Shown here in pieces: positions 4,506 through 61,026 of a DNA stretch of 64,000 nucleotides; positions within the stretch are counted from its first letter, which is position 1, and each line of letters starts with the position of its first letter. A program made the translations under genes and the position numbers. The DNA comes from a virus (Duplodnaviria; Caudoviricetes), in IMG/VR virus record IMGVR_UViG_3300020577_009873, positions 4,638-68,637 of that record. One strand, written 5' to 3'. Below the pieces are notes generated by a model. That model was not told where the DNA came from. It searched no databases and saw only the letters and a list, made by a program, of their open reading frames with translations.

Positions 4506-4852
4506 ATTAATTCATTTAATTTTCTATTTCTTATAATAGACACAAGATTTGCATTTTTATAATGCGATAAATCAAACATTACTATCCATCTATGCTTATA
4601 TAATTTGTGGTTTACTCTTCTAATTACAGCAAAACCTTCTTCACGTAAACTATCATTATCATTACTATCTAATAGTGGTAGATCCCAAGTATCCATTTTT
4701 TTGGCTTTTTTTATCATATTTAATGATCTATTCAGTTCTATTAAGCTTAGATTTTCAACCTCAGTATCAACATATGACAACAAAGTATAATCACTAGGCC
4801 CAGCTATGTACGCCAAAATTTTATCTTCTATTGTAGCAACTATAAATCTCAT
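4502..4852 (-). CDS. hypothetical protein
   Basis: ORF ending RNRKLNELI. Confidence 0.7.
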   Translation of the reverse strand: MRFIVATIEDKILAYIAGPSDYTLLSYVDTEVENLSLIELNRSLNMIKKAKKMDTWDLPLLDSNDNDSLREEGFAVIRRVNHKLYKHRWIVMFDLSHYKNANLVSIIRNRKLNELI

Positions 4853-10015: not shown

Positions 10016-10219
10016 ATGAAAGACAAAATATACATATTATTAATTCAGAAAAACCTTGATATAACTAAGTACAATGTAGAAAAGTTATATCAGGCAGGAC
10101 TGAATAAGATAATTGATAATATAGAATTTTATTATGACAAACCTTATTCGTGTGAGTCTGTTTTTAAAGAATTATTTGATAGGGGTGTCATGGAGGAAGT
10201 TAGAAAAGTCCAATCTTAA
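10016..10219 (+). CDS. hypothetical protein
   Basis: ORF whose stop lies within the terminator hairpin. Confidence 0.6.
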   Translation: MKDKIYILLIQKNLDITKYNVEKLYQAGLNKIIDNIEFYYDKPYSCESVFKELFDRGVMEEVRKVQS

Positions 10220-10236
10220 ATAGATTGGACTTTTTT
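10204..10236 (+). terminator. intrinsic terminator
   Basis: AAAAGTCCAATCT-TAAAT-AGATTGGACTTTT followed by TT. Confidence 0.85.
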
Positions 10237-10253
10237 AATTTAATATATAAATT

Positions 10254-10652
10254 ATGAACCATATACAGAGGTTTAACGAATATAATGGTGAATTTTATTT
10301 TGAGATAACTCCAGATGAGAATTATCAATATTGGAGAATCATTTATAATAGGCTAGGTATTGATGAGAATCTTTATGGTAGGGATAAGATTGAATATTCT
10401 AAAAAGGTTCCTCATTTTAATAGTTATGAATCTGATTATTTAATTAGTAAGGGATTTAAGTTTGATAATAGTTGGAATATAGAATGGAAGTCTTTGGTTA
10501 TTAAAAATGTCGAATCATCAAATTATTACATTTATAAAGGGTTAGATGAGTGGTATCTAGTTACTTGCTTACGGTCTTTCAGATCAATCTACTATAAGTG
10601 TGATCAGTGGGATGGGTTACTAAAGTTTTTAAGTGATTATAAATTACAATAA
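10254..10652 (+). CDS. hypothetical protein with N-terminal MNHIQRFNE tag
   Basis: AATATATA upstream; C-terminal DEWY...YKCDQWDGL resembles 61439..61807. Confidence 0.75.
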   Translation: MNHIQRFNEYNGEFYFEITPDENYQYWRIIYNRLGIDENLYGRDKIEYSKKVPHFNSYESDYLISKGFKFDNSWNIEWKSLVIKNVESSNYYIYKGLDEWYLVTCLRSFRSIYYKCDQWDGLLKFLSDYKLQ

Positions 10653-10740
10653 AGATAATGAGGTAATATCAAAAAGTTTGGATTTTGCGCAATCGTTTGA
10701 GCAAATTATATTAAAAAGGAATAGGTAAAACCATATGATT

Positions 10741-10775
10741 AAAAAAGTCCAATCTATTTAAGATTGGACTTTTTT
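10741..10775 (-). terminator. intrinsic terminator, inverted copy of 10204-10236
   Basis: same hairpin and loop on the opposite strand. Confidence 0.85.
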
Positions 10776-19383: not shown

Positions 19384-21591
19384 TTATAATTTTTCCATAA
19401 ATACTGAATCCTCGCTCTTAAATAAATAGTTCTGGTAAGCATCTTCTGCTAAAAAGGAACACATTGGAGCCAGAGCCTTCATAAATCTTTCTAAAGCAAA
19501 TTTCATTACATATTGACATCTTTGTCTTTCAGGTGAGTGTAAATCATATTCATATAAATAAGATTTTGTAGGAACGTCTAAATATTGACTAGAGAATTCG
19601 GTCACCCAAGCCATAAGTTCCTCAAAAACCTTTCTGAAATTCATTTCAGAGTAATTATTTTTAACTCTACTATACATCAACTCACATCTTTCAAGTGCGA
19701 GCAGTTCTTTTTCACCCATTTCACACTGTAAATTGTCAAATCCATACATATTTCCAAGTAAATATTTTAACGTATTTCTGAACTTAAAGTAATATTCACC
19801 ACAACTTTTCAAAACATTTTCACCTAACTGAACATCATCAGCATATGTAACAACAGATGCCCATAATCTCATAACATCACTATTGTGTTTTAATTGCATT
19901 TCTTTAGGATCTACTACATTACCAACTGATTTTGCCATTTTTCTACCGTTTCCATCTAATACAAATCCATGTGATACTAGCTTTTTATATGGTGATTTAC
20001 CGTTCATGGCAACAGATGTTAGCAAAGATGATTGAAACCACCCACGAGTTTGATCTGAACCTTCAAAGTAAACATCAGACTGACCACCAACAACTGAATA
20101 CCAACTAACACCAGAATCAAACCATACATCTAAAGTATGTTCGCATTTAACTAGGCCAAGTCCTTGAAATTCAGTTGGTAATAAATCTTCCTCTGTTCTA
20201 TCAAACCACACATTTGAGCCATGATTTTTGAATAGTGTAACTAAGTGCTTTTCCAAATCTTTATTTAGAAATGGCTTACCATCTTTCATAAAAACTGCCA
20301 ACGGAAATCCCCATTTTCTTTGTCTTGATAAGCACCACCTGTCTCTCGATTTTAGTGTACTTGTTAATCTATTTTTCCATCTTTCTTCTGAAAAGGTAAC
20401 ATCATTCAAAGCAAGTAAAGCTTTTTCTTTTAGTTCAGACAAATTCAAAAAGAACTGCTCAGTCAATTTAAAGTAAACAGGTCCTCCTGTTCTCCAATCA
20501 TGTGGGTAGGAATGTTCATAATATTCAGATTTAAATAGCATATCACCCATTTGAGATACAACCCACTCTGATCCAGCATCTAAGCAAAATAGACCATTTG
20601 ATAATTTACCAGCAGGATCAGTTAAGTCTAATCCGGTTAATCCATTCTTTTTGCATACCTCAAAATCATCCTCACCATGTGCGGGACAAAGATGAACTAA
20701 TCCGGTTCCACTATCTAATTTTACAAATTTATCACAAACTACGAAACCACCACTTCCAAGTTTGTTGCTATATTTTAATCCTTTAAGTGATTTTCCCTTA
20801 TATTTATTAACAACTTCACCATTTAAAAGATGCATTCTTGATTCTGCAACAACATAGGTTTTATCTCCTAATTTTACATCAACATAGTCTCCACTTTTAT
20901 TAACACATACAGCAACATTACCCAATACTGTCCATGGTTGTGTTGTCCATAAAAATAGCTTTCTTCCATCTTCTAAATCAAATGTAAAATAAGCAGATAG
21001 ATCTTTCCTGTTCTTATATTCTAATTCAGCTTCAGCTAATACGGTTCTTGATGATGGTGAGTAGTAAACAGGTCTGCTATCAAGATATAATAAGGAACTA
21101 TTTAGAAAATTATATAATACTTCTAATTGTTTATATTCATAGTTTTTATCCATTGTTAAATAAGGATTATCCCATTCTGCTAAAACCCCAAATGATTTAA
21201 ATGTTTCGTTTTGTTTTTCAGAATATGTTTGTGCCCATTCCTCACATTTATTTCTAAGTTCGGTAGTATTTAATCTACCATATTTTTTTTGTACGGCTAA
21301 TTCGGTTGGTAATCCATGACAATCAGATCCAGGCCTAAATCTCACTTTATCACCCTTCATAAGATGATACTTAACTGTCATGTCTTTTAGTACTTTATTT
21401 AAAAGGTGACCAACATGCACATCACCATTTGCATATGGTGGACCATCATGTAATGTAAAAAGTTCACCTTCATTTCTTTCGTTTCTATTTTTGAGAACAT
21501 CTTTCCATAATTTTAAAAGTTCAGGTTCTCTTTGTTGTGAATTCGATCTTTGTGTGAATTCTGTTTTCGGCATATTTAATGTCTTACTCAT
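19384..21591 (-). CDS. ileS: isoleucyl-tRNA synthetase, C-terminally shortened
   Basis: LHDGPPYANG, HVGH, WTTQPWT, WCLSRQRKWG, EGSDQTRGWF, KMAKS; start MSKTLNMPK lies downstream of the terminator. Confidence 0.95.
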   Translation of the reverse strand: MSKTLNMPKTEFTQRSNSQQREPELLKLWKDVLKNRNERNEGELFTLHDGPPYANGDVHVGHLLNKVLKDMTVKYHLMKGDKVRFRPGSDCHGLPTELAVQKKYGRLNTTELRNKCEEWAQTYSEKQNETFKSFGVLAEWDNPYLTMDKNYEYKQLEVLYNFLNSSLLYLDSRPVYYSPSSRTVLAEAELEYKNRKDLSAYFTFDLEDGRKLFLWTTQPWTVLGNVAVCVNKSGDYVDVKLGDKTYVVAESRMHLLNGEVVNKYKGKSLKGLKYSNKLGSGGFVVCDKFVKLDSGTGLVHLCPAHGEDDFEVCKKNGLTGLDLTDPAGKLSNGLFCLDAGSEWVVSQMGDMLFKSEYYEHSYPHDWRTGGPVYFKLTEQFFLNLSELKEKALLALNDVTFSEERWKNRLTSTLKSRDRWCLSRQRKWGFPLAVFMKDGKPFLNKDLEKHLVTLFKNHGSNVWFDRTEEDLLPTEFQGLGLVKCEHTLDVWFDSGVSWYSVVGGQSDVYFEGSDQTRGWFQSSLLTSVAMNGKSPYKKLVSHGFVLDGNGRKMAKSVGNVVDPKEMQLKHNSDVMRLWASVVTYADDVQLGENVLKSCGEYYFKFRNTLKYLLGNMYGFDNLQCEMGEKELLALERCELMYSRVKNNYSEMNFRKVFEELMAWVTEFSSQYLDVPTKSYLYEYDLHSPERQRCQYVMKFALERFMKALAPMCSFLAEDAYQNYLFKSEDSVFMEKL

Positions 21592-21617
21592 ATTATTTTT
21601 GTTAATTTTTTGAAAAT

Positions 21618-21648
21618 AAAAAAACCCCAAGAAAAATTCCTTGGGGTT
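21618..21648 (-). terminator. ileS attenuator terminator
   Basis: minus strand AACCCCAAG-GAATTTTT-CTTGGGGTT followed by T-tract. Confidence 0.9.
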
Positions 21649-21670
21649 CAATTTTGATAATAGTTATCCA

Positions 21671-21736
21671 TTATCCAATTGGCTTTAGCCAAGGAATCGT
21701 ATAATGAATAATTATAATATTTTTGTGATTAAACAT
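21671..21736 (-). CDS. Ile leader peptide MFNHKNIIIIHYTIPWLKPIG
   Basis: four tandem Ile codons; ATTCCTTGG complementary to terminator arm CCAAGGAAT. Confidence 0.9.
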   Translation of the reverse strand: MFNHKNIIIIHYTIPWLKPIG

Positions 21737-21769
21737 AATGTTTATAGTTTTTTTATCTTTATTGTTTTA

Positions 21770-21777
21770 CAAATATA
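21770..21777 (-). promoter_or_regulatory. Bacteroidota -7 promoter box for the Ile leader
   Basis: TATATTTG on the minus strand. Confidence 0.65.
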
Positions 21778-21801
21778 TGAAAATAAATTGAAAACAAAAA
21801 A

Positions 21802-22788
21802 TTATCTTGCATAATGTCGAATTATACCCCTTCTTAAAATTTCTGCACCTTTTTTAATTCTTTTGTCAATGTATTTGAAAAATCCATCAACCGATAAGCT
21901 TTTAATTAATTCTGGATCAATTGAGGTGTCGGGTCCATTTTCTTCTGAATCTAAAAACTTTGTAATATTATCTGCTAGTCCATTTTTCATTTCTGTTAAA
22001 ACCTCTTCTGGATTCCTATCTGGCATTGACTTCTTAATTTCATCAACTAAAGTTTGCTTAAATGATACAGGATCAAATGATGATAATCTCTGATAAAAAT
22101 CCCAACTTGGTGTTTTCTCTTTCATTTCATCAAATGAGTATTTCTTAGTATATGGGTAAGCGTCTTGAGTCATGGCATTCAATTCATGTCTTTCCGTCCA
22201 ATAGATATAATATCCAAACTCTTTCCACCATATATTCCACACACTATCTGGAACATCCGCAGCATTAACATCGAGTGCGTAGGTAACTGAAGTTGGTATA
22301 ACTGGCTTACCTCTTTTATACCTATTATATCCCTCAAAAGAGTGGTTTAGTTCATGTACTAATCCGGATTCTAATTCAATTTCTAATCCATCAATATCAT
22401 CAAATTTATCCTCATTTATAATACCACCGACTTCAATTTTTAAAAGTGATTTTCCATCCTCTGTTTCCTCAAAATCTTCACAAGCTCCAGTGGTTGTAAA
22501 ATGTTTTCCTCTTGAACTTATTGTAGGAAATTTATTAGTAAACTCTTCATTAGAAATTTTGTCAAATGTAACTAAAAGTTCAATTTTTGTAATTGGGTAT
22601 TTATCTGTTACGGCTGATGCAATTTCTTCTTCAAATTCTAATTTTTCCTCAAATTTTGATACATCTTTGGAATAAAAGTCTTGGAATTTTTCCTTGACAT
22701 ATTTCATTAATATATCACTATACTTCAATGTTTCTTCCGAAACACCAAGTTTTTCGAGTATAAAATCTTGGAATTTAAAAATTTTCAT
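21802..22788 (-). CDS. HExxH putative metallopeptidase with N-terminal MKIFKFQDFILE tag
   Basis: LVHELNH and a downstream ELNA. Confidence 0.65.
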   Translation of the reverse strand: MKIFKFQDFILEKLGVSEETLKYSDILMKYVKEKFQDFYSKDVSKFEEKLEFEEEIASAVTDKYPITKIELLVTFDKISNEEFTNKFPTISSRGKHFTTTGACEDFEETEDGKSLLKIEVGGIINEDKFDDIDGLEIELESGLVHELNHSFEGYNRYKRGKPVIPTSVTYALDVNAADVPDSVWNIWWKEFGYYIYWTERHELNAMTQDAYPYTKKYSFDEMKEKTPSWDFYQRLSSFDPVSFKQTLVDEIKKSMPDRNPEEVLTEMKNGLADNITKFLDSEENGPDTSIDPELIKSLSVDGFFKYIDKRIKKGAEILRRGIIRHYAR

Positions 22789-22818: not shown

Positions 22819-23361
22819 ATGAAATATATTAAAACATATGAAGACCATGAAGATTTACTTAATTCACTTAAAAAATTAAGTGATCAAATGAGTAGATTAA
22901 AAATCTTAACAAAGATGGATATTCGTCATAAAACTCCGAAAGAGATATATGAAGATTTCTTCTTAGAATTTAAAGAATCAGAAGGATTCAAAATAGAGAT
23001 TCACGGACGTAGCAACAACGGCATAGGTCCTATAAGCGTTGACTTATATAATATGATCGATAAAGATATTATAGAATCTGAATTTTATAGATATGTTGAT
23101 AAATTGAAGTCAATTAAAAGTAGGTTAGAAAATTATATGAATTTTGATTGTCATTTTACGATATCATTAAATGGTAAAGAACAAAATGTACAAGTAGGAT
23201 ATGACCGAAGAAATGATGAATTTAAATTTTCAGGACTAGGTGATAAAAAAAGCGGATATGATGGAAATGGACAATATTATACAAATATCAATGGTATCGC
23301 TGGATCTAAAAATTTTCCAGATGATAAAGTTTCTATGATAATAAAATTTTATATCATTTAA
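22819..23361 (+). CDS. hypothetical protein with N-terminal MKYIKTYE tag
   Basis: AATATATA upstream. Confidence 0.75.
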   Translation: MKYIKTYEDHEDLLNSLKKLSDQMSRLKILTKMDIRHKTPKEIYEDFFLEFKESEGFKIEIHGRSNNGIGPISVDLYNMIDKDIIESEFYRYVDKLKSIKSRLENYMNFDCHFTISLNGKEQNVQVGYDRRNDEFKFSGLGDKKSGYDGNGQYYTNINGIAGSKNFPDDKVSMIIKFYII

Positions 23362-24200
23362 ATTTTCTCACCCTTTGTCTCATCATAGTATCTCCATGTA
23401 AATCCTTTAACAATTATAAATTTTCCATTTTTCTTATTTAATTTTCTCCTGCAACAAGAAATTAAATTAGATTTACCAATATCATTGTTAGATGATGCTT
23501 CTCTAATAGAATCATATATTTGTAGTAATCTACCATTCAAATCATATTTACAAACTTTTCTACTATTAGCCTGTATATTTTTGTTATATGGGACATAATC
23601 AAATTTGTCTCCCTTGTATCTAAATGTTGTTGATGTTATATCATCTTCCTTTCTCCAAAAATGTTTACCACCAACAGTATAGTATGATTTTTTTTTACAA
23701 CACAATGATATTAGATATATATGATTTCCTGATTTTCTACTAGCATCTATCAAAGATTCATATTCATTTAAAATATTTCCATTTAGGTCATATTCTATAA
23801 CAGGAGTCATATATTTATATTTGGAATCATGTATTTTCTTTTTTGATGAATCTTTATGTTTTCTGCCATTCCAGTCAACACCAAATTCACCACCTTCGCT
23901 AAGGTTTGTTAGTCGAAATCCATCATCTTTAAATTTCCTAACCCAATATATTTCTAATTCATTTACATTTGATGAATCACATTCCTGAATAATGTTCATT
24001 ATTGGTTTTTCTCCAACTTTCAAAAGTGATTTTATCCAATTAGATTTATGTGTATTTTTATCATATTTTTCTAGATAACACTTTTGTAAATGCCGTTTAT
24101 ATCTATTTTTTGGATTATTAGTTTTCCCAATATATCTAACTTCATTGGTAATTGGATCTGAAAGTGAATAAATAAATTGTTTCTTTAATATTTTTTCCAT
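23358..24200 (-). mobile_element. GIY-YIG homing endonuclease with NUMOD1 repeats
   Basis: FIYSL...RYIGKT; two YDLNG...Y.S..EAS modules. Confidence 0.85.
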
Positions 24201-24256: not shown

Positions 24257-25876
24257 ATGAAATACATTAAAAAACGAAATAGTTTCTTAAAAGAAAGTAA
24301 GACTATGAAAGATGATGCTCTACACATCTTGGCAACACATGATGACAACCAATCCTCTGATATTAAAGAGGTTTTAGATGACCTAGATAAAACAAAAGTT
24401 TCCTCTAGGGTTATTACCAGGTTTGCCCCTTCTCCAACTGGAAAACTTCACATTGGGGGAATACGCACTGCATTATATAACTATCTATTTGCTAAAAAGC
24501 ACAATGGTATATTTTATGTTCGTATAGAAGATACTGATCAAAAAAGATTCGACTCTGAAGCAGAAGATTATATTAAGAACGCGTTAGAATGGGTTGGTAT
24601 TGAAACAGATTGGGATCCATGGAAGGGGGGTCCAAATGGTCCTTATCGCCAATCCGAAAGGGATTATACTGGACACATCAAAACTCTATTGGATGCTGGT
24701 CATGCTTATTATGCTTTTGATACTGAACAAGATTTAAATTTAGTAAGAAAGGATAATCAAAACTTTGCCTATGATGTAAAGTCAAGAATGAATATGAAAA
24801 ACTCTCTTTCTTTATCAAAAGAAGAAGTTGATAAATTACTTGAAAATAAAGCACCATATGTAATTAGATTTAAGGTTCCTGAAAACAAAACTATTAAATT
24901 TACTGATATCGTTAGAGGTGATGTTTCTTTTAATAGTGCTCAAGTTGATGATAAGGTATTAGTTAAATCAAATGGTATTCCTACTTATCATATGGCATCC
25001 GTATGTGATGATCATGATATGGGAACAACACACGTTATTAGAGGTGAAGAGTGGCTACCGTCTGCCCCATTACATGTCATGTTATATGAAGCATTTGGTT
25101 GGGATGCCCCGCAATTTGCTCACTTACCTTCAATTCTTAAGCCAGATGGTAAAGGAAAACTTTCAAAAAGGGATGGACTCAAATTAGGTATTCCAGTATT
25201 TCCATTTGGTGGAGAGGGAGTAGATGATAAAGGAAATACCGTTAAATATAAAGGATTTAAAGACGAAGGATTTGAACCAGACGCACTTGTAAACTTCTTA
25301 TTGTTATTAGGATGGGCACCAAGTGATGGTAAAGAAATTTATAATTTAGCTGAAATGATTTCTGACTTCTCTCTTGATAGAGTTCATAAAGCAGGAGCTA
25401 GATTTGATATGGATAAAGCAAAGTGGTTTAATAGTGGATATCTTCAAAATAAATCAGATGCTGAATTATTAAGTCATATTGATATGGGTAACACCTATAA
25501 ATATGATGATGATAAATTATCAATGATTGTTGATTTGTGTAAAAAGAGAAGCACTTTTAAAACTGATATGCAGGTTGTTGCTGATATCTTCTTTAAACCA
25601 GTAATTCTTGGAGAAAAGGAATTAAAAAGCTTATCAGAAGACTATAAAAAAGTTTTTGTAGACTTTGTTGAAAAAGCATCATCAATTGATTGGGAAATGG
25701 AAAAGGTTAAACAATTAATTTTTGATATCTGTGCAGAAAAAGGAATTAAAATGGGTAAAGTAATGCCGTCATTAAGAATGTCTGTTACGGGTGGTGTCCC
25801 AGGACCAGATTTAATGACCACAATGTTTATTTTAGGAAAAGAAGAAAGCCTAAAAAGAATTAAAAATTCTTTATAA
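24257..25876 (+). CDS. gltX: glutamyl-tRNA synthetase with ~50-aa N-terminal extension
   Basis: TRFAPSPTG, HIGG, RIEDTD, YRQSER, HVIRGEEW, KLSKR. Confidence 0.95.
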   Translation: MKYIKKRNSFLKESKTMKDDALHILATHDDNQSSDIKEVLDDLDKTKVSSRVITRFAPSPTGKLHIGGIRTALYNYLFAKKHNGIFYVRIEDTDQKRFDSEAEDYIKNALEWVGIETDWDPWKGGPNGPYRQSERDYTGHIKTLLDAGHAYYAFDTEQDLNLVRKDNQNFAYDVKSRMNMKNSLSLSKEEVDKLLENKAPYVIRFKVPENKTIKFTDIVRGDVSFNSAQVDDKVLVKSNGIPTYHMASVCDDHDMGTTHVIRGEEWLPSAPLHVMLYEAFGWDAPQFAHLPSILKPDGKGKLSKRDGLKLGIPVFPFGGEGVDDKGNTVKYKGFKDEGFEPDALVNFLLLLGWAPSDGKEIYNLAEMISDFSLDRVHKAGARFDMDKAKWFNSGYLQNKSDAELLSHIDMGNTYKYDDDKLSMIVDLCKKRSTFKTDMQVVADIFFKPVILGEKELKSLSEDYKKVFVDFVEKASSIDWEMEKVKQLIFDICAEKGIKMGKVMPSLRMSVTGGVPGPDLMTTMFILGKEESLKRIKNSL

Positions 25877-27023: not shown

Positions 27024-27197
27024 GAAGAAGTAAAACATTCAAAAAAAATTCACCCAAAAGCTTTTAAGGAGTGAGGAAAAAGAGTTAAGATTAGATTTAA
27101 ACTTAATATGGCATGTTTATGAGGATGAGATTACTGATGCAGAAAATTTTTCGGTAATAACAAGATGGTAAAAATAAACTATTTATAAAAAATTTCG

Positions 27198-27205
27198 TAT
27201 ATTTG
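27198..27205 (+). promoter_or_regulatory. Bacteroidota -7 promoter box for the Val leader
   Basis: CG-TATATTTG-T, 4 nt before the leader ATG. Confidence 0.75.
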
Positions 27206-27209
27206 TAAT

Positions 27210-27263
27210 ATGAATATCAATTTAAATATCGTCGTGGTATCAACATCTGTCCGATGTTGGTAA
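27210..27263 (+). CDS. Val leader peptide MNINLNIVVVSTSVRCW
   Basis: GTC GTG GTA tandem plus GTC; GATGTTGG pairs with CAACATC (27241) or with terminator arm CCAACATC. Confidence 0.9.
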   Translation: MNINLNIVVVSTSVRCW

Positions 27264-27284
27264 TTTTTACGCCTAAAATTATAC

Positions 27285-27318
27285 AAACCCCAACATCAAA
27301 AAATGTTGGGGTTTTTTT
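27285..27318 (+). terminator. valS attenuator terminator
   Basis: AAACCCCAACAT-loop-ATGTTGGGGTTT followed by TTTT. Confidence 0.9.
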
Positions 27319-27379: not shown

Positions 27380-28192
27380 ATGAAAAAAATAGAAATGATA
27401 ATTTACGGACTATTCTCCTCAGAGTCACCATCTGATATTAGATATATTGGAAAGGCAACCAATATTAAAGACAGACTAAGAAGACATCTATCAAAGTATA
27501 GTTTGAAGAACGATACATATAAAAACAGATGGATAAAATCTGAAATAAATAAAGGAAATAAAATAGAAATTGCAATCATAGAAGAGGTTAGTGAAAGCAA
27601 TTGGGAAAAAGCAGAAATTTTTTGGATATCCGAATTTAGAAAACTAGGGTATAACTTAACAAATTCGACTATTGGTGGAGATGGAATAGTTCCAACGAAT
27701 GAAATTATAAATAAAAGGGGTAAAACCAAAATTACAAACAATTTAAAAAATAAATCGGAATTAATTGAAAAGTTCAATATAAGAGAAATAAATAACATGT
27801 GGGTTGGTGAGAGGGTCTGCCCAAAATGTGGTAAAATAATCAGATATGAATTATCAAATATTAATAAACTAATATCTCTTTGTAAAAAATCTATTGATAG
27901 GAAATGTTTATCTTGTAGTAGTACAGACAAAACACCATTTAGAAATCATAAGTGGTCTACAAAAGGAATGAAATATAAAACCAATAACAGCAAATTAATT
28001 AGAGAAAAATATGGTAAAAAAATACAACAATTTGATAAAGATGGAAATTTAATTGATGAATTTAATTCCATTAGAGAAGCAAATTCAATTACAAAAATTG
28101 ATAGAAAAAGTATATCACAATGTATTAAAGGAACCAGAATAACAGCTGGAGGATACATTTTCAAACAAAAAATGAATAATTATGAAAAATAA
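27380..28192 (+). mobile_element. GIY-YIG homing endonuclease with NUMOD1
   Basis: IIYGL...RYIGKA, NLTNSTIGGDG, FNSIREA...TAGGYIF. Confidence 0.85.
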
Positions 28193-29525
28193 ATTTTTAA
28201 TAGATACTCCCCCACCAACAATTAGCGGAAGTCAAGGACTTCATATCGGACATATATTTTCCTATACACAAGGTGATTTAATTGCAAAATATAAAAGATT
28301 TATTGGCAATGATATTATCTACCCGTTTGGGATAGACAATAATGGCATACCTACCCAAAAAAGCGCATCTAACAAGGGAATAAAAGGAACGAAAGAAATA
28401 ATTGACTTCTCACTTAAAAGGGGAGAAGATTACAAATCAACATTTAAAATGTGCGGCATTACTTTTGAAAATGGACAAGATTATCATACCTATAATAATC
28501 TTTCACTAGATATTTGCTATCAAGCATTTGAAATTTTAAAGAAAAAGGGAATTGCCTATAAGGCAAACACAGAATATCTGTGGTCTGAAAAATTAAAAAC
28601 TTCTATTTCACAATCTGAATTAAATGAAGAAGGATTGATTGAAAGAACTGGAGAAACTCCAATTATTAAAAGTGGTGAGGGGTGGTTTATTAATTTAAAA
28701 GATCATTTGCCACAGATAAAAGAAATGATAGATAAAATAGAATGGAAACCAATTAAATTCAAGAAAAGAATTGATGATTGGATTGAAAATATAAAATGGG
28801 ATTGGTCAATCTCAAGAGAAAGAAATTTTGGAATTCAAATTCCTGGTGAAGAAACATTTACCTTTGATACTTGGTTCATTTCATCACTATCTCCGCAAAT
28901 TGCTTGGTCGTCATATAAAGGATATAATGATATGCTGAATTGTCCAATATTTGATATGAGATTTCAATCACATGATATTATTAGAACTTGGGCATTTTAT
29001 ACAATTGCTATGTCCTATTTTATTAATGGTCAAATTCCTTGGAAAACAATTATGATAACAGGTCATACTTTAGATGGAAATGGGGATAAATTTAGTAAAT
29101 CAAGTGGTAATGCAACTCCGCCAAAGCCATTAATTGATAAGTATGGTATATCAGGAATTAGATATTGGGCTTTTTCTAGTACGTTAGGAACCGATACTAA
29201 GATTGATGAGAATAAGATGAAAATAGGCTGGAGAATTATTAATAAATTAAAAAATGCTGAAAAGTTTATTAATATGCAAATAGAAAATAATTGGATTGGT
29301 GAGAAAGAGGAGTATTATTCTAAGTGGTTAGAACAAAAGAATATGATATTTGAATATTTAGAAGAATATGAAATTGATAAAGCAAATGGTGCTTTATATG
29401 AATTTTTCTGGGACACATTTTGTTCTACTTGGATTGAGGAGTCTAAAAAAGAATCAATATCATTAACATTAATTAAAATACTTAATGAAATAAAAGGTAT
29501 TATAAATTTCATTTATATAAAATAA
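28182..29525 (+). CDS. valS: minimal valyl-tRNA synthetase
   Basis: DTPPPTISG, HIGH, DWSISRER, FDTWF, DIIRTW, KFSKS; Val leader upstream. Confidence 0.85.
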   Translation: MKNKFLIDTPPPTISGSQGLHIGHIFSYTQGDLIAKYKRFIGNDIIYPFGIDNNGIPTQKSASNKGIKGTKEIIDFSLKRGEDYKSTFKMCGITFENGQDYHTYNNLSLDICYQAFEILKKKGIAYKANTEYLWSEKLKTSISQSELNEEGLIERTGETPIIKSGEGWFINLKDHLPQIKEMIDKIEWKPIKFKKRIDDWIENIKWDWSISRERNFGIQIPGEETFTFDTWFISSLSPQIAWSSYKGYNDMLNCPIFDMRFQSHDIIRTWAFYTIAMSYFINGQIPWKTIMITGHTLDGNGDKFSKSSGNATPPKPLIDKYGISGIRYWAFSSTLGTDTKIDENKMKIGWRIINKLKNAEKFINMQIENNWIGEKEEYYSKWLEQKNMIFEYLEEYEIDKANGALYEFFWDTFCSTWIEESKKESISLTLIKILNEIKGIINFIYIK

Positions 29526-53538: not shown

Positions 53539-53570
53539 TTTGGTGGGTAGAAAAGTTCGCCGTATCTTTG
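53539..53570 (+). promoter_or_regulatory. Bacteroidota sigma-A promoter for the His/Phe/Trp module
   Basis: TTTG-N20-TATCTTTG. Confidence 0.8.
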
Positions 53571-53597
53571 TGAAACAAATAATAAAAAGAAAAAATC

Positions 53598-53693
53598 ATG
53601 TCATACGTTAGTAAACATAAACATTTTAGCAAATTCCATTTTTGGTTTAGTACCAAGAGTTCGGGAGCTAATATTGTTTTGCCTAATGTGTAA
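53598..53693 (+). CDS. His/Phe/Trp leader peptide MSYVSKHKHFSKFHFWFSTKSSGANIVLPNV
   Basis: 3 His, 4 Phe and 1 Trp within codons 7-17; GAGTTCGGG pairs with terminator arm CCTGAACTC. Confidence 0.88.
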   Translation: MSYVSKHKHFSKFHFWFSTKSSGANIVLPNV

Positions 53694-53716
53694 TGGTGAA
53701 AATAAAAGTATTAGAT

Positions 53717-53747
53717 AAACCTGAACTCGAAAAGTTCAGGTTTTTTT
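53717..53747 (+). terminator. His/Phe/Trp attenuator terminator
   Basis: AAACCTGAACT-CGAAA-AGTTCAGGTTT followed by TTTT. Confidence 0.9.
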
Positions 53748-53767
53748 ATTGCTAAAAATTTATTATT

Positions 53768-54391
53768 ATGAGAGAAATTAAAGAAAATACGTACAAGGGA
53801 ACAAGAATTCTATTAGGAAATGAAAAAAGAGATTTAATTAATAGAATGATAGATGTTCTAAAAGATAGAGGATATATGGAAATTCAAATTCCAATTATTC
53901 AAAATCTAGAAACCTTTAGAAATAAGGTAGGTGATGAAAATAGAAATATGATGTTTTTATTTTCTGATAGAGGAAATAGAGAATTGTGTTTGGCTCCTGA
54001 ATATACCGCGGTAATTCAGTCATTGAGTGATACATTCAAATATAGTAAAGATGTTAAATTGTTCTATGTTCAAGAATGTTTCAGAGGTGAAAGACCACAA
54101 GCAGGTAGATACAGACAGTTTACACAATTAGGTGTAGAGATAATTAATCCAAGTATGGATTATGTTGAAGAACTTTCTTCATTAGCACTCGAACTAGTGT
54201 CAAATGGTAATGTTGATAGATTCAAAGTAGATATGAGTGTTACAAGAGGATTAGATTATTATAAAGATGGAAAAGGATTTGAAATATCCTGTGATGAATT
54301 AGGAGCTCAAAAACAAGTGTGTGGTGGGGGTGAATATGATGGTGGAATTGGGTTCGCGATTGGAATTGATAGAATATTGTTGATTAATTAA
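53768..54391 (+). CDS. hisS: minimal histidyl-tRNA synthetase (catalytic domain only)
   Basis: KGTR, LAPEYTA, FRGERPQAGRYRQFTQLGVE, RGLDYY, GGGEYD, GFAIGIDRI. Confidence 0.88.
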   Translation: MREIKENTYKGTRILLGNEKRDLINRMIDVLKDRGYMEIQIPIIQNLETFRNKVGDENRNMMFLFSDRGNRELCLAPEYTAVIQSLSDTFKYSKDVKLFYVQECFRGERPQAGRYRQFTQLGVEIINPSMDYVEELSSLALELVSNGNVDRFKVDMSVTRGLDYYKDGKGFEISCDELGAQKQVCGGGEYDGGIGFAIGIDRILLIN

Positions 54392-59872: not shown

Positions 59873-59903
59873 TTTGGTGGGAATAAAAAAAATCGTATCT
59901 TTG
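59873..59903 (+). promoter_or_regulatory. Bacteroidota sigma-A promoter for the Ser/Arg module
   Basis: TTTG-N19-TATCTTTG; closely similar to the promoter at 53539. Confidence 0.8.
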
Positions 59904-59939
59904 TGAAAACAAAGGAATAAAAATATAATATATACAATT

Positions 59940-60005
59940 ATGAAAATGGTTAATACAAATACAAGTTCGTCACGTAGTTCTAACAGCTCGAAAATTCGAA
60001 GTTGA
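59940..60005 (+). CDS. Ser/Arg leader peptide MKMVNTNTSSSRSSNSSKIRS
   Basis: 8 Ser codons of five kinds plus CGT and CGA; AAATTCGAAGTT pairs with the terminator arm. Confidence 0.9.
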   Translation: MKMVNTNTSSSRSSNSSKIRS

Positions 60006-60032
60006 TTGTATTTCTATTGCTATACAATATTG

Positions 60033-60059
60033 AACCTCGAATTTAATTCGAGGTTTTTT
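60033..60059 (+). terminator. Ser/Arg attenuator terminator
   Basis: AACCTCGAAT-TTA-ATTCGAGGTT followed by TTTT. Confidence 0.9.
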
Positions 60060-60066
60060 GTTTTAT

Positions 60067-60453: not shown

Positions 60454-61026
60454 ATGAAATACACAGTATATAAAATAACAAATTTAATAAACGGTAAAAT
60501 TTATATCGGAGTTCATAAAACAGAAAATTTAGACGATGGATATATGGGATCTGGTAAAAATATAAAAAGAGCTATTGACAAATATGGAATTCAAAATTTT
60601 AAAAAAGAATATATTAAAATATTTGACAATCAAGAAGATATGTTTAAAATGGAGTCTGAGTTGGTAAATGAGTTATTTTTATCTAGTCGTGAGAATTATA
60701 ATATAATGAAAGGAGGCCATGGAGGATTTGAACATATAAATAAAAATTGTTGGGATAAAGAAAGTAGAAAAAATCATTTACAAAAAATATACAATTTGGT
60801 TTCAGCTGAAAAAAGAAAGGATATCGGAGCATATATGGGTAAAAATTTTGGAGGTAGTAATAGATTAAGAGAGGATGTAATAAATTATAGATTAAAAATA
60901 CTCGAAACAGTTGACATGTCTAAATATGGTTGGGTAGAAAAAGCTAGTAAATTACTAAATATAACCCATACACAAGTTAGGAGATTTGTAAATAAATATT
61001 ATACGGGGGAATATTATAGAAGATAA
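60454..61026 (+). mobile_element. GIY-YIG (Seg-like) homing endonuclease inside the tRNA array
   Basis: TVYKITNLINGKIYIGVH...YMGSG...YN. Confidence 0.88.

Follow-up and report, generated by a model that had tools for sequence, protein, structure and literature searches.

The best-studied attenuation of an aminoacyl-tRNA synthetase gene is that of pheM-pheST in Escherichia coli (Rfam RF01859), and in the enterobacterial operons ilvGMEDA and ilvBN it is ribosome stalling at the Ile, Val and Leu codons of the leaders ilvL and ivbL that decides between terminator and antiterminator. Here we describe an arrangement of this type in a bacteriophage. The DNA analyzed, subsequently called the window, is a stretch of 64,000 nucleotides (nt) from the virus record IMGVR_UViG_3300020577_009873 (positions 4,638 to 68,637). 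On its minus strand a short open reading frame (ORF) with a run of isoleucine codons and a terminator hairpin precede ileS, the gene of an isoleucyl-tRNA synthetase (IleRS). We consider it highly likely that this leader acts on transcription as a classical, ribosome-mediated attenuator, measuring charged tRNA-Ile and so controlling ileS in a huge phage.

The phage leader resembles pheM-pheST in its cognate-rich leader peptide, in the proposed alternation of antiterminator and terminator and in the predicted control of a synthetase operon. It differs in the amino acid and the enzyme concerned and bears no sequence relation to it (20.9 bits against the Phe_leader model, which requires 55); the phage setting without Shine-Dalgarno use, the enzyme lacking its own amino acid and the multi-synthetase set further separate the two. 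Unlike ilvL and ivbL, which are multivalent (Ile, Val and Leu) and control biosynthetic operons, the phage leaders carry codons for essentially one amino acid each and precede genes of charging enzymes or tRNAs. The T-box leaders of ileS respond to the signal proposed for the phage leader, uncharged versus charged tRNA-Ile, but they read the tRNA directly on the RNA without a ribosome, and no T-box match was found at the phage locus. Classical attenuators have been predicted upstream of trpS and leuS in Streptomyces in a paper that, in the parts considered here, names pheST as precedent and places ileS under T-box control (Seliverstov et al. 2005, PMC1262725). Those predictions were also comparative and describe leader ORFs with cognate codons plus antiterminator and terminator in front of synthetase genes. 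In contrast to the phage leaders they lie in cellular genomes of high G+C content and concern a single gene each, and the same parts of the paper report no cognate-free enzymes.

Enzymes needed for recovery from a shortage have been described to use little of their own amino acid (Alves and Savageau 2005; Fasani and Savageau 2014, PMC4209129), the classic example being the alpha chain of tryptophan synthase, which contains no Trp (PMC4209129). This cognate bias is statistical and concerns biosynthetic pathways; in the sections of PMC4209129 considered, the sole 'synthetase' is tryptophan synthetase. In the phage, by contrast, aminoacyl-tRNA synthetases are affected and the avoidance is nearly absolute. 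In the main texts of the open-access literature we found no report of leader-peptide attenuation in phage, of leader-peptide control of ileS or of aminoacyl-tRNA synthetases lacking their own amino acid. The huge-phage paper describes up to 15 synthetases per genome, and the portion of it considered contains neither a word starting with 'attenuat' nor the word 'leader' (PMC7162821). The mechanism proposed here is textbook attenuation; the phage setting appears to be new, and the cognate-free enzyme and the set of cognate leaders extend it unexpectedly.

Architecture of the ileS leader

All coordinates refer to the window, and the leader and ileS lie on its minus strand. The order on this strand is a gene at 21802-22788 (ending in TAA), a promoter-like box, the leader ORF, two small hairpins, the terminator and ileS:

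21770..21777, minus strand: TATATTTG box, candidate promoter element; the leader ATG follows 33 nt downstream
21671..21736, minus strand: leader ORF MFNHKNIIIIHYTIPWLKPIG plus stop codon, 21 codons, ATG start
21707..21718, minus strand: four Ile codons ATT ATA ATT ATT (codons 7-10), proposed ribosome stall site
21689..21697, minus strand: segment A, ATTCCTTGG, codons 14-16, 5′ strand of the antiterminator
21679..21692, minus strand: hairpin H1, TTGGC-TAAA-GCCAA, competitor of the antiterminator for segment A
21656..21675, minus strand: hairpin H2, GATAATGG-ATAA-CTATTATC, enclosed by the antiterminator, with the leader stop codon in its 5′ arm
21636..21644, minus strand: segment C, CCAAGGAAT, partner of segment A, terminator 5′ arm plus first loop bases
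21618..21649, minus strand: intrinsic terminator, 12-bp stem (5 G-C), 4-nt loop and U7
19384..21591, minus strand: ileS, 735-aa IleRS (PF00133, E 9.6e-106; TIGR00392)

The original prediction, made from this sequence by itself, had listed the box, the leader ORF and the Ile codons at positions 7-10, all of which are present on the minus strand. It had also claimed a perfect 9-bp complementarity between codons 14-16 and the 5′ arm of the terminator, and segment A (ATTCCTTGG) is in fact the exact reverse complement of segment C (CCAAGGAAT) over 9 nt; the TTGG of segment A doubles as part of hairpin H1. Its objection that the ORF track extends IleRS too far is right as well. The mechanical ORF list opened IleRS at a TTG at 21651, which lies inside the terminator, and read through the latter, whereas ileS truly starts with the ATG at 21591: M-x-K-x-LNMP opens every homologue at this point, and TIGR00392 aligns from residue 12. 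The U-run of the terminator is separated from this ATG by 26 nt that contain no box.

We compared the leader with 5000 dinucleotide-preserving shuffles of 21769-21650. A complement of at least 9 nt to the terminator arm arose in 17 of them and a closed ORF of at least 8 aa with at least four consecutive Ile in 20, while the two were found jointly in none. The leader RNA also folds far more stably than shuffled sequence: z is -5.6 over a length of 166 nt and -5.0 over 86 nt, and at each length none of 200 shuffles was as stable.

Conservation in related phage loci

Related loci were gathered by protein-guided searches and thus independently of the leader: 20 from metagenomes, 2 and then 32 from viruses, and the best 80 of at least 600 from bacteria. 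Duplicates were dropped (L002 and L027, identical to the window leader; L010 and L029, to L009; L019, to L007; L031, to L015; L036, to L003), as were loci without a 5′ end or with less than 200 nt of upstream sequence (L008, L011, L017, L018, L020, L022, L023 and L025). We kept 14 distinct loci with at least 200 nt upstream, which form a clade of IleRS proteins of 735-740 aa with 60-98% protein identity. The leader is found in all 14, each time with a run of 3-5 Ile codons, an invariant TCCTTGG and a terminator of -15 to -21 kcal/mol. The leader peptides are MFNHKNIIIIHYTIPWLKPIG, MNFNTIIIIRYSIPWSIPIG, MLKNLNIIIIQNSIPWYIPIE, MLNFNIIIFIIIFLGGS, MLNRNIIIIRRSIPWYKPIG, MKFFNNNIIIIINAIPWCEPNG, MLNNTIIIIHYTIPWTSPIG, MKLLNNIIIRNKSPWTNQR, MRSTCIIIIHRLTPWIFQW, MKMSKNIIIIHRLNPWVNQR, MLNLKNIIIISYSVLGSS, MNFNSIIIIRKSTPWYKPIG, MKMKRNIIIIHRLNPWIPQR and MKMKRNIIIIHRLNPWTTQR. 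Over these leaders Ile is encoded by ATT 42 times and by ATA 32 times, and never by ATC. The residues ahead of the run vary freely (for example MFNHKN, MNFNT, MLKNLN and MRSTC), and the upstream genes are all different in the loci compared in this respect (the window, L001 and L003). The peptide frame of L007 and L028 is shifted by a difference of a single base. The Ile codons and TCCTTGG persist in both loci despite this shift, which argues that selection acts on codons and RNA rather than peptide.

The distance between the Ile run and the antiterminator strand is nearly constant. The gap that separates CCTTGG from the run's last Ile codon is 12 nt in 11 of the 14 loci and 9, 11 or 14 nt in the other three; in the same number of loci (11/14) TCCTTGG begins 11 nt past that codon. 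A ribosome reaches ~12-13 nt beyond the first base of its A-site codon, and the observed spacing matches this reach.

For a cellular source of the gene or the leader we obtained no candidate: the best of the at least 600 bacterial IleRS loci are at most 41% identical, their leaders having been left uninspected.

Covariation and alternative folds

With a plain MAFFT alignment RNAalifold recovered the terminator alone (11 consensus pairs, 4 of them with compensatory changes). Hairpins H1 and H2 were recovered only with a structure-aware alignment, which is fitted to that structure and thus favors it. In this alignment of the 14 sequences 92.5% of the 334 cells of H1, H2 and the terminator are paired compared to 34-53% in slid controls, changes on both sides occur in 10 of 24 pairs, and on four of five measures none of 500 shuffles reaches the observed value. 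Taken singly, the terminator is paired in 98% of its cells, H2 shows both-side changes in five of its eight pairs, and the closing pair of H1 takes four standard types over the 14 sequences (UA 5, CG 3, AU 1 and GC 1). The antiterminator core TCCTTGG/CCAAGGA forms its seven pairs in 13-14 of the 14 sequences. A covariance model built from the form with three hairpins rescored the 14 sequences at 78-118 bits.

A long hairpin, in which the Ile codons pair with the region of the stop codon and which would act as anti-antiterminator, is present in each single-sequence fold (14/14); its tip is H1, which covaries. The free full-length RNA folds into this long hairpin plus the terminator in all 14 cases. 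When the RNA was cut before the 3′ arm of the terminator and masked as by a ribosome stalled at the Ile run, the minimum-energy structure was the A-C pairing around H2, again in 14 of 14. A ribosome at the stop codon covers H2 and the 3′ half of H1, with segment A lying just behind its trailing edge. Folding with and without a masked ribosome had been proposed along with the original prediction, and antiterminator and terminator do switch with the position of the ribosome in 14/14.

A search of the whole window with Rfam yielded tRNAs alone at the gathering score and no T-box or riboswitch, and no T-box match appeared in 21400-22000 even at E up to 10. Besides Phe_leader (see above), the best matches below threshold were the trpB motif (32 bits versus 59) and His_leader (25 versus 49), all of them driven by the terminator. 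The ileS leader is predicted to work like His_leader and Phe_leader yet stands outside those sequence families.

An IleRS without isoleucine

The window IleRS scores 666 bits against TIGR00392 (cut-off 621) and carries the class I motifs in the forms HVGH and KMAKS, replacing HIGH and KMSKS. None of its 735 residues is isoleucine. Eleven of 12 homologues are likewise free of Ile and one contains a single Ile, while the mean over the window ORFs of at least 150 aa is 8.2%. Bacterial IleRS proteins contain 3.2-8.0% Ile with a median of 5.9% (68 proteins, those of the best 80 loci that were in frame and long enough). A gene that is switched on by a lack of Ile-tRNA would be expected to encode an IleRS whose synthesis requires none, and the phage enzyme can probably be both switched on and made when charged Ile-tRNA runs out.

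Leader and composition also go together in two distant phage IleRS (~35% identical). L055 has the leader MKTLNTFVNSIIIIPKLPMS plus a terminator, and its enzyme contains no Ile in 841 residues; L046 has the Ile-rich leader MKTLNLIKNIRIIKAR and a single Ile in 851 residues. In L046 (2297-2402) the first leader codons can pair with the ribosome-binding site of ileS, and this locus may exert the same control at the level of translation, in a host with Shine-Dalgarno usage. In 17 other IleRS from phages and metagenomes the Ile content is 2.6-7.4% and no leader was seen by eye in the upstream sequence (L052 was left out owing to stops in frame).

Putative sister attenuators in the window

The covariance model of the ileS leader gave a second, weak match in the window at 27192-27317 (E 0.011), in front of a ValRS-like gene. 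A scan of the window added two more leaders, and in total we list three further leaders and two synthetase-like genes:

27198..27318, plus strand: Val attenuator with TATATTTG box, leader MNINLNIVVVSTSVRCW (27210-27263) and terminator 27285-27318, found with the covariance model
28182-29525, plus strand: Val-free ValRS-like gene, 447 aa, 0 Val, 331 bits against the ValRS model (below cut-off)
53563..53750, plus strand: His/Phe/Trp-codon attenuator with TATCTTTG box, leader MSYVSKHKHFSKFHFWFSTKSSGANIVLPNV (53598-53693) and terminator from 53717
53768-54391, plus strand: His-free HisRS-like gene, 207 aa, 0 His, a catalytic-core fragment, 146 bits against the hisS model (below cut-off)
59896..60060, plus strand: Ser/Arg attenuator with TATCTTTG box, leader MKMVNTNTSSSRSSNSSKIRS (59940-60005) and terminator 60032-60056 plus U-run (covariance E 0.21)

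The Val attenuator shows a clean 1:2, 2:3, 3:4 arrangement: CAACATC pairs with GATGTTG, GATGTTGG with CCAACATC, and finally CCCCAACAT with ATGTTGGGG in the terminator, which is followed by U7. The ValRS-like protein apparently lacks an editing domain. A homing-endonuclease gene of the GIY-YIG/NUMOD type (27380-28192, plus strand) lies between attenuator and gene. In L140 and in the uncultured phage LR745206.1 the Val leaders MKFNQNIVVVNVSV and MKTINLNNLVVVNVSV, in which the helix strands are changed in step, stand directly before the gene; since the attenuator abuts the ValRS-like gene there, the endonuclease looks like a recent insertion in the window. Val leaders also precede ValRS-like homologues in L141 and in G001, a 507,910-bp relative that is 97% complete (CheckV).

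The HisRS-like gene is followed, up to 54980, by genes for tRNA-Phe, tRNA-His and tRNA-Trp, and the codon mix of its leader matches these tRNAs; the homologous His/Phe leader of G001 reads MKTLNINTHFHFHFENLELGVH. The Ser/Arg leader is followed, up to 61206, by tRNA-Arg(gcg), tRNA-Ser(tga), tRNA-Arg(tcg), a GIY-YIG-like ORF (60454-61026) and tRNA-Ser(gga), and the Ser/Arg attenuator is thus predicted to gate tRNA genes. Its homologue in G001 stands before six tRNA-Ser/Arg genes and SerRS, and a further one is located upstream of a HisRS-like gene in the W01 region. The exception in the window is GluRS (24257-25876, plus strand): a divergent GIY-YIG gene lies 56 nt away, too close for a leader to fit in between, and with 5.8% Glu the enzyme is not poor in Glu.

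Endonuclease genes of the GIY-YIG type adjoin synthetase or tRNA genes at three places in the window (23358-24200, minus strand; 27380-28192 and 60454-61026, plus strand). This is reminiscent of phage T4, whose tRNA region contains homing endonucleases, as described in the part of PMC2330249 considered. Elsewhere in the window, at 10205-10772, two copies of one 12-bp palindromic terminator (AAAGTCCAATCT...AGATTGGACTTT) flank an ORF at 10254-10652; the sequence can be read as a terminator on either strand.

Cognate leaders and cognate-poor synthetases in relatives

A genome-wide, unbiased scan of G001 found 77 terminators and, adjacent to them, 49 short ORFs. Runs of at least four identical residues are present in five distinct leaders, namely IIII, LLLL, QQQQ, VVVV and SSSS. 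Four of these five precede IleRS, a LeuRS-like gene, four tRNA-Gln genes plus GlnRS, and the ValRS-like gene, respectively; for the fifth (MYSSSSCW, near the contig end) no ORF of at least 80 aa was found within 500 nt. Further G001 leaders stand before AspRS (..ADD..D), the HisRS-like gene (HFHFHF) and the tRNA-Ser/Arg block with SerRS. LR745206.1 carries Leu, Gln, Ser and Asp leaders and one that is apparently an Asn leader. Across the phage group, synthetase genes for Val, Leu, Gln, His, Asp and Ser stand behind leaders with the matching codons. No leader was seen within 420 nt of the G001 genes for ThrRS, AsnRS and ProRS, all three of which follow tRNA genes, or of those for GluRS and GlyRS-like, and upstream of LysRS there are two Lys/Arg-rich mini-ORFs with hairpins that lack a U-run.

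Ten of the 13 typed synthetases of G001 contain at most one cognate residue:

IleRS, 738 aa: 0 cognate residues
ValRS-like, 509 aa: 0 cognate residues
HisRS-like, 211 aa: 0 cognate residues
AspRS, 425 aa: 0 cognate residues
ProRS, 368 aa: 0 cognate residues
ThrRS, 346 aa: 0 cognate residues
GlnRS, 539 aa: 1 cognate residue
AsnRS, 392 aa: 1 cognate residue
LysRS, 400 aa: 1 cognate residue
GlyRS-like, 266 aa: 1 cognate residue
LeuRS-like, 421 aa: 20 cognate residues (4.8%, 0.58 of background)
SerRS, 423 aa: 12 cognate residues (2.8%, 0.39 of background)
GluRS, 508 aa: 20 cognate residues (3.9%, 0.58 of background)

For four G001 enzymes the missing residue was read first and the enzyme typed afterwards with NCBIfam; the two agreed in all four cases (Thr, Asn, Gly and Lys).

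Several synthetase genes of G001 are organized in modules with tRNA genes (L177 3928-6037; L178 2651-4779; L177 18768-20000). These include a Gln leader followed by four tRNA-Gln genes and GlnRS, a Ser/Arg leader followed by tRNA-Ser/Arg genes and SerRS, two tRNA-Pro genes followed by ProRS, and three tRNA-Lys genes, with the Lys/Arg-rich mini-ORFs between them, followed by LysRS. The GluRS of G001 (15510, minus strand) contains just 2 Gln in 508 residues, 0.13 of background, and might have a role in charging tRNA-Gln.

Promoter box and Shine-Dalgarno usage

The TATATTTG box fits the -7 consensus of Bacteroidota. Upstream of the leader a TAnnTTT(G/A) box was recognized by eye in about nine of the 14 related loci. 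The window, which has 30% G+C, contains 115 copies of the generic motif TAnnTTTG, and eight of these 115 fall into zones upstream of ORFs that cover 7% of the positions; there is no enrichment upstream of window ORFs, and by itself the TATATTTG box speaks only weakly for a promoter. An extended form, CGTAT(A/C)TTTG, recurs in intergenic positions before genes and leaders (12719 and 19359, minus strand; 27198, 39794, 53485, 53563 and 59896, plus strand) and may be the better promoter candidate than the generic motif. In many related leaders AATATATA(A/C) stands 5-8 nt upstream of the ATG, a placement which suggests very short or no 5′ untranslated regions.

A Shine-Dalgarno-like word precedes only 2 of 75 window ORFs compared to 7.5% of random positions. 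Such scarcity of Shine-Dalgarno words suits a Bacteroidota-type host.

Source phage

The ORFs of the window are short, tightly packed and often overlapping, and its gene content includes a tail-fibre protein, a UvsX-like recombinase, an NAD-dependent ligase, 13 tRNA genes, IleRS, GluRS and a GIY-YIG endonuclease. The virus record has 68,637 bp and is rated 13% complete. The closest named record is LR745206.1 (634,780 bp), with an IleRS 75.9% identical, and the next matches reach at most 36.7%. According to the passages considered of PMC7162821, Bacteroidetes are the predicted hosts for replication of its five huge-phage genomes larger than 634 kb. Judging by its length, LR745206.1 is presumably among these five, and the source of the window is probably a huge phage infecting Bacteroidota. 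A stretch of 1001 nt occurs as contigs in four wastewater metatranscriptome runs, an observation of contig occurrence only.

An origin from a giant virus was also considered. The sequence AAAATTGA (21660-21653) together with the hairpin recalls the early-promoter motif and the 'hairpin rule' of mimivirus. This reading was rejected on account of the phage-family genes, the packed and overlapping ORFs and the huge-phage relatives.

DISCUSSION

The reading of this locus as an Ile attenuator upstream of a phage ileS, put forward in the original prediction, is supported by comparative evidence from the 14 loci, the folds, the Ile-free enzyme and the sister leaders, all of it at the level of sequence. 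From the observed sequence elements and their conservation, from hairpins that covary and strands that can pair in alternative ways, and from the amino-acid composition and the cognate pattern we infer stalling, its timing and the response to Ile-tRNA as follows. Transcription would start upstream of the leader, and the sole path to ileS would run through the terminator. A ribosome would translate the 21-codon leader with the polymerase ahead of it. If Ile-tRNA is plentiful, the ribosome would reach the stop codon within H2 and cover the RNA lying between segment A and the terminator. Segment C would then pair with the 3′ arm and transcription would terminate. If Ile-tRNA is scarce, the ribosome would stall on codons 7-10 with its front edge just short of TCCTTGG, leaving segment A free. 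Segment A would pair with segment C, clamped by H2, before the 3′ arm is made, so that no terminator forms and ileS is transcribed. As the enzyme is free of isoleucine, it could be made under exactly the condition that switches its gene on. The ileS switch would be one of a family in which Val, His, Ser, Leu, Gln and Asp leaders gate the matching synthetase or tRNA genes.

Several points weigh against this mechanism. In five of the 14 loci no promoter box was recognizable by eye. A Shine-Dalgarno sequence is absent before the leader, yet this holds for all but two of the 75 window ORFs. The antiterminator core is invariant or shows G-U changes only, with no compensatory change, and 214 of 500 shuffles do as well. 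The long anti-antiterminator hairpin is unsupported in a fixed register (66% paired versus 65% in shuffles). In the truncated RNA without a ribosome the antiterminator forms in eight of the 14 sequences and the long hairpin in six; since the antiterminator already wins in these eight, the off state must rest on the ribosome. That a ribosome at the stop codon blocks the A-C pairing is a steric inference. When the full-length RNA is folded with the stall mask, the terminator form is again the minimum in 14/14; with the terminator favored as soon as the 3′ arm exists, the switch must be kinetic. The trp attenuator is kinetic as well. Finally, the mechanism presupposes that transcription and translation are coupled in the host.

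Among the alternatives, the leader might sense a general slowing of translation, caused by host shut-off, ribosome shortage or the stringent response, with Ile codons that are merely common in AT-rich DNA. Ile is the easiest residue to encode at 30% G+C and, as noted above, makes up 8.2% of residues; a run of at least four Ile in a closed ORF did arise in 20 of the 5000 shuffles, and the leaders contain more Ile codons downstream of the run. However, general sensing leaves unexplained why the Ile run persists among varying neighbors in 14 of 14 loci, why codons for Val, Leu, Gln, His, Asp or Ser occupy the sister leaders in front of the matching synthetases, and why the enzymes avoid exactly their own amino acid. 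We regard this alternative as unlikely.

It is also rather improbable that the short ORF encodes a functional micro-protein or, as an upstream ORF, controls the translation of ileS by coupling or re-initiation instead of termination. The conserved nucleotides coincide with helix strands and in L007 and L028 are read in another frame that ends early, and ~80 nt with a strong terminator separate the leader stop from the ileS start. These findings outweigh a C-terminal IPW..PIG that is common to seven of the 14 leaders and the leader region of L046, whose ability to pair with the ileS ribosome-binding site makes translational control an option in this group.

The hairpin does lie downstream of a gene on the same strand (21802-22788), and short ORFs are common in AT-rich DNA (94 ORFs of at least 20 aa in 8 kb), so that it could be the terminator of this gene only, ileS having its own promoter and the ORF and the 9-nt complement arising by chance. 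We consider this very improbable: the upstream genes differ in the loci compared while leader and terminator always travel with ileS, the upstream gene of L050 has a separate terminator ahead of the leader box, just 26 boxless nt remain between U-run and ATG, and ORF and complement never coincided in the 5000 shuffles. A switch that binds a ligand, a protein or a tRNA (T-box-like or riboswitch-like), with translation of the short ORF being irrelevant, would suit the strong structure of the leader RNA and the T-boxes at ileS in Firmicutes and Actinobacteria (in the parts considered of PMC1262725), but it has hardly any likelihood given the lack of a T-box or other Rfam match at the gathering score, a structured part of ~75 nt with no specifier-type element, and the conserved in-frame Ile run.

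If the ribosome-mediated attenuator is the correct reading, such leaders would provide compact natural sensors specific for single amino acids. For annotation it would yield a rule according to which the amino acid missing from a phage synthetase predicts its specificity, as in the four of four blind cases in G001. More broadly, we think it reasonably likely that huge phages carry a self-starting rescue kit for tRNA charging, consisting of synthetases with no or nearly no cognate residue, many of them gated by leaders and often accompanied by the cognate tRNAs. With such a kit the phage could detect which charging reaction of the host has collapsed, whether the cause is starvation, the stringent response, host shut-off or a defence directed at tRNAs or synthetases. 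It could then rebuild that single step with an enzyme that can be synthesized without it. In this case the synthetases and tRNAs of huge phages would serve as an on-demand repair of a failing charging step, not as a constitutive supplement.

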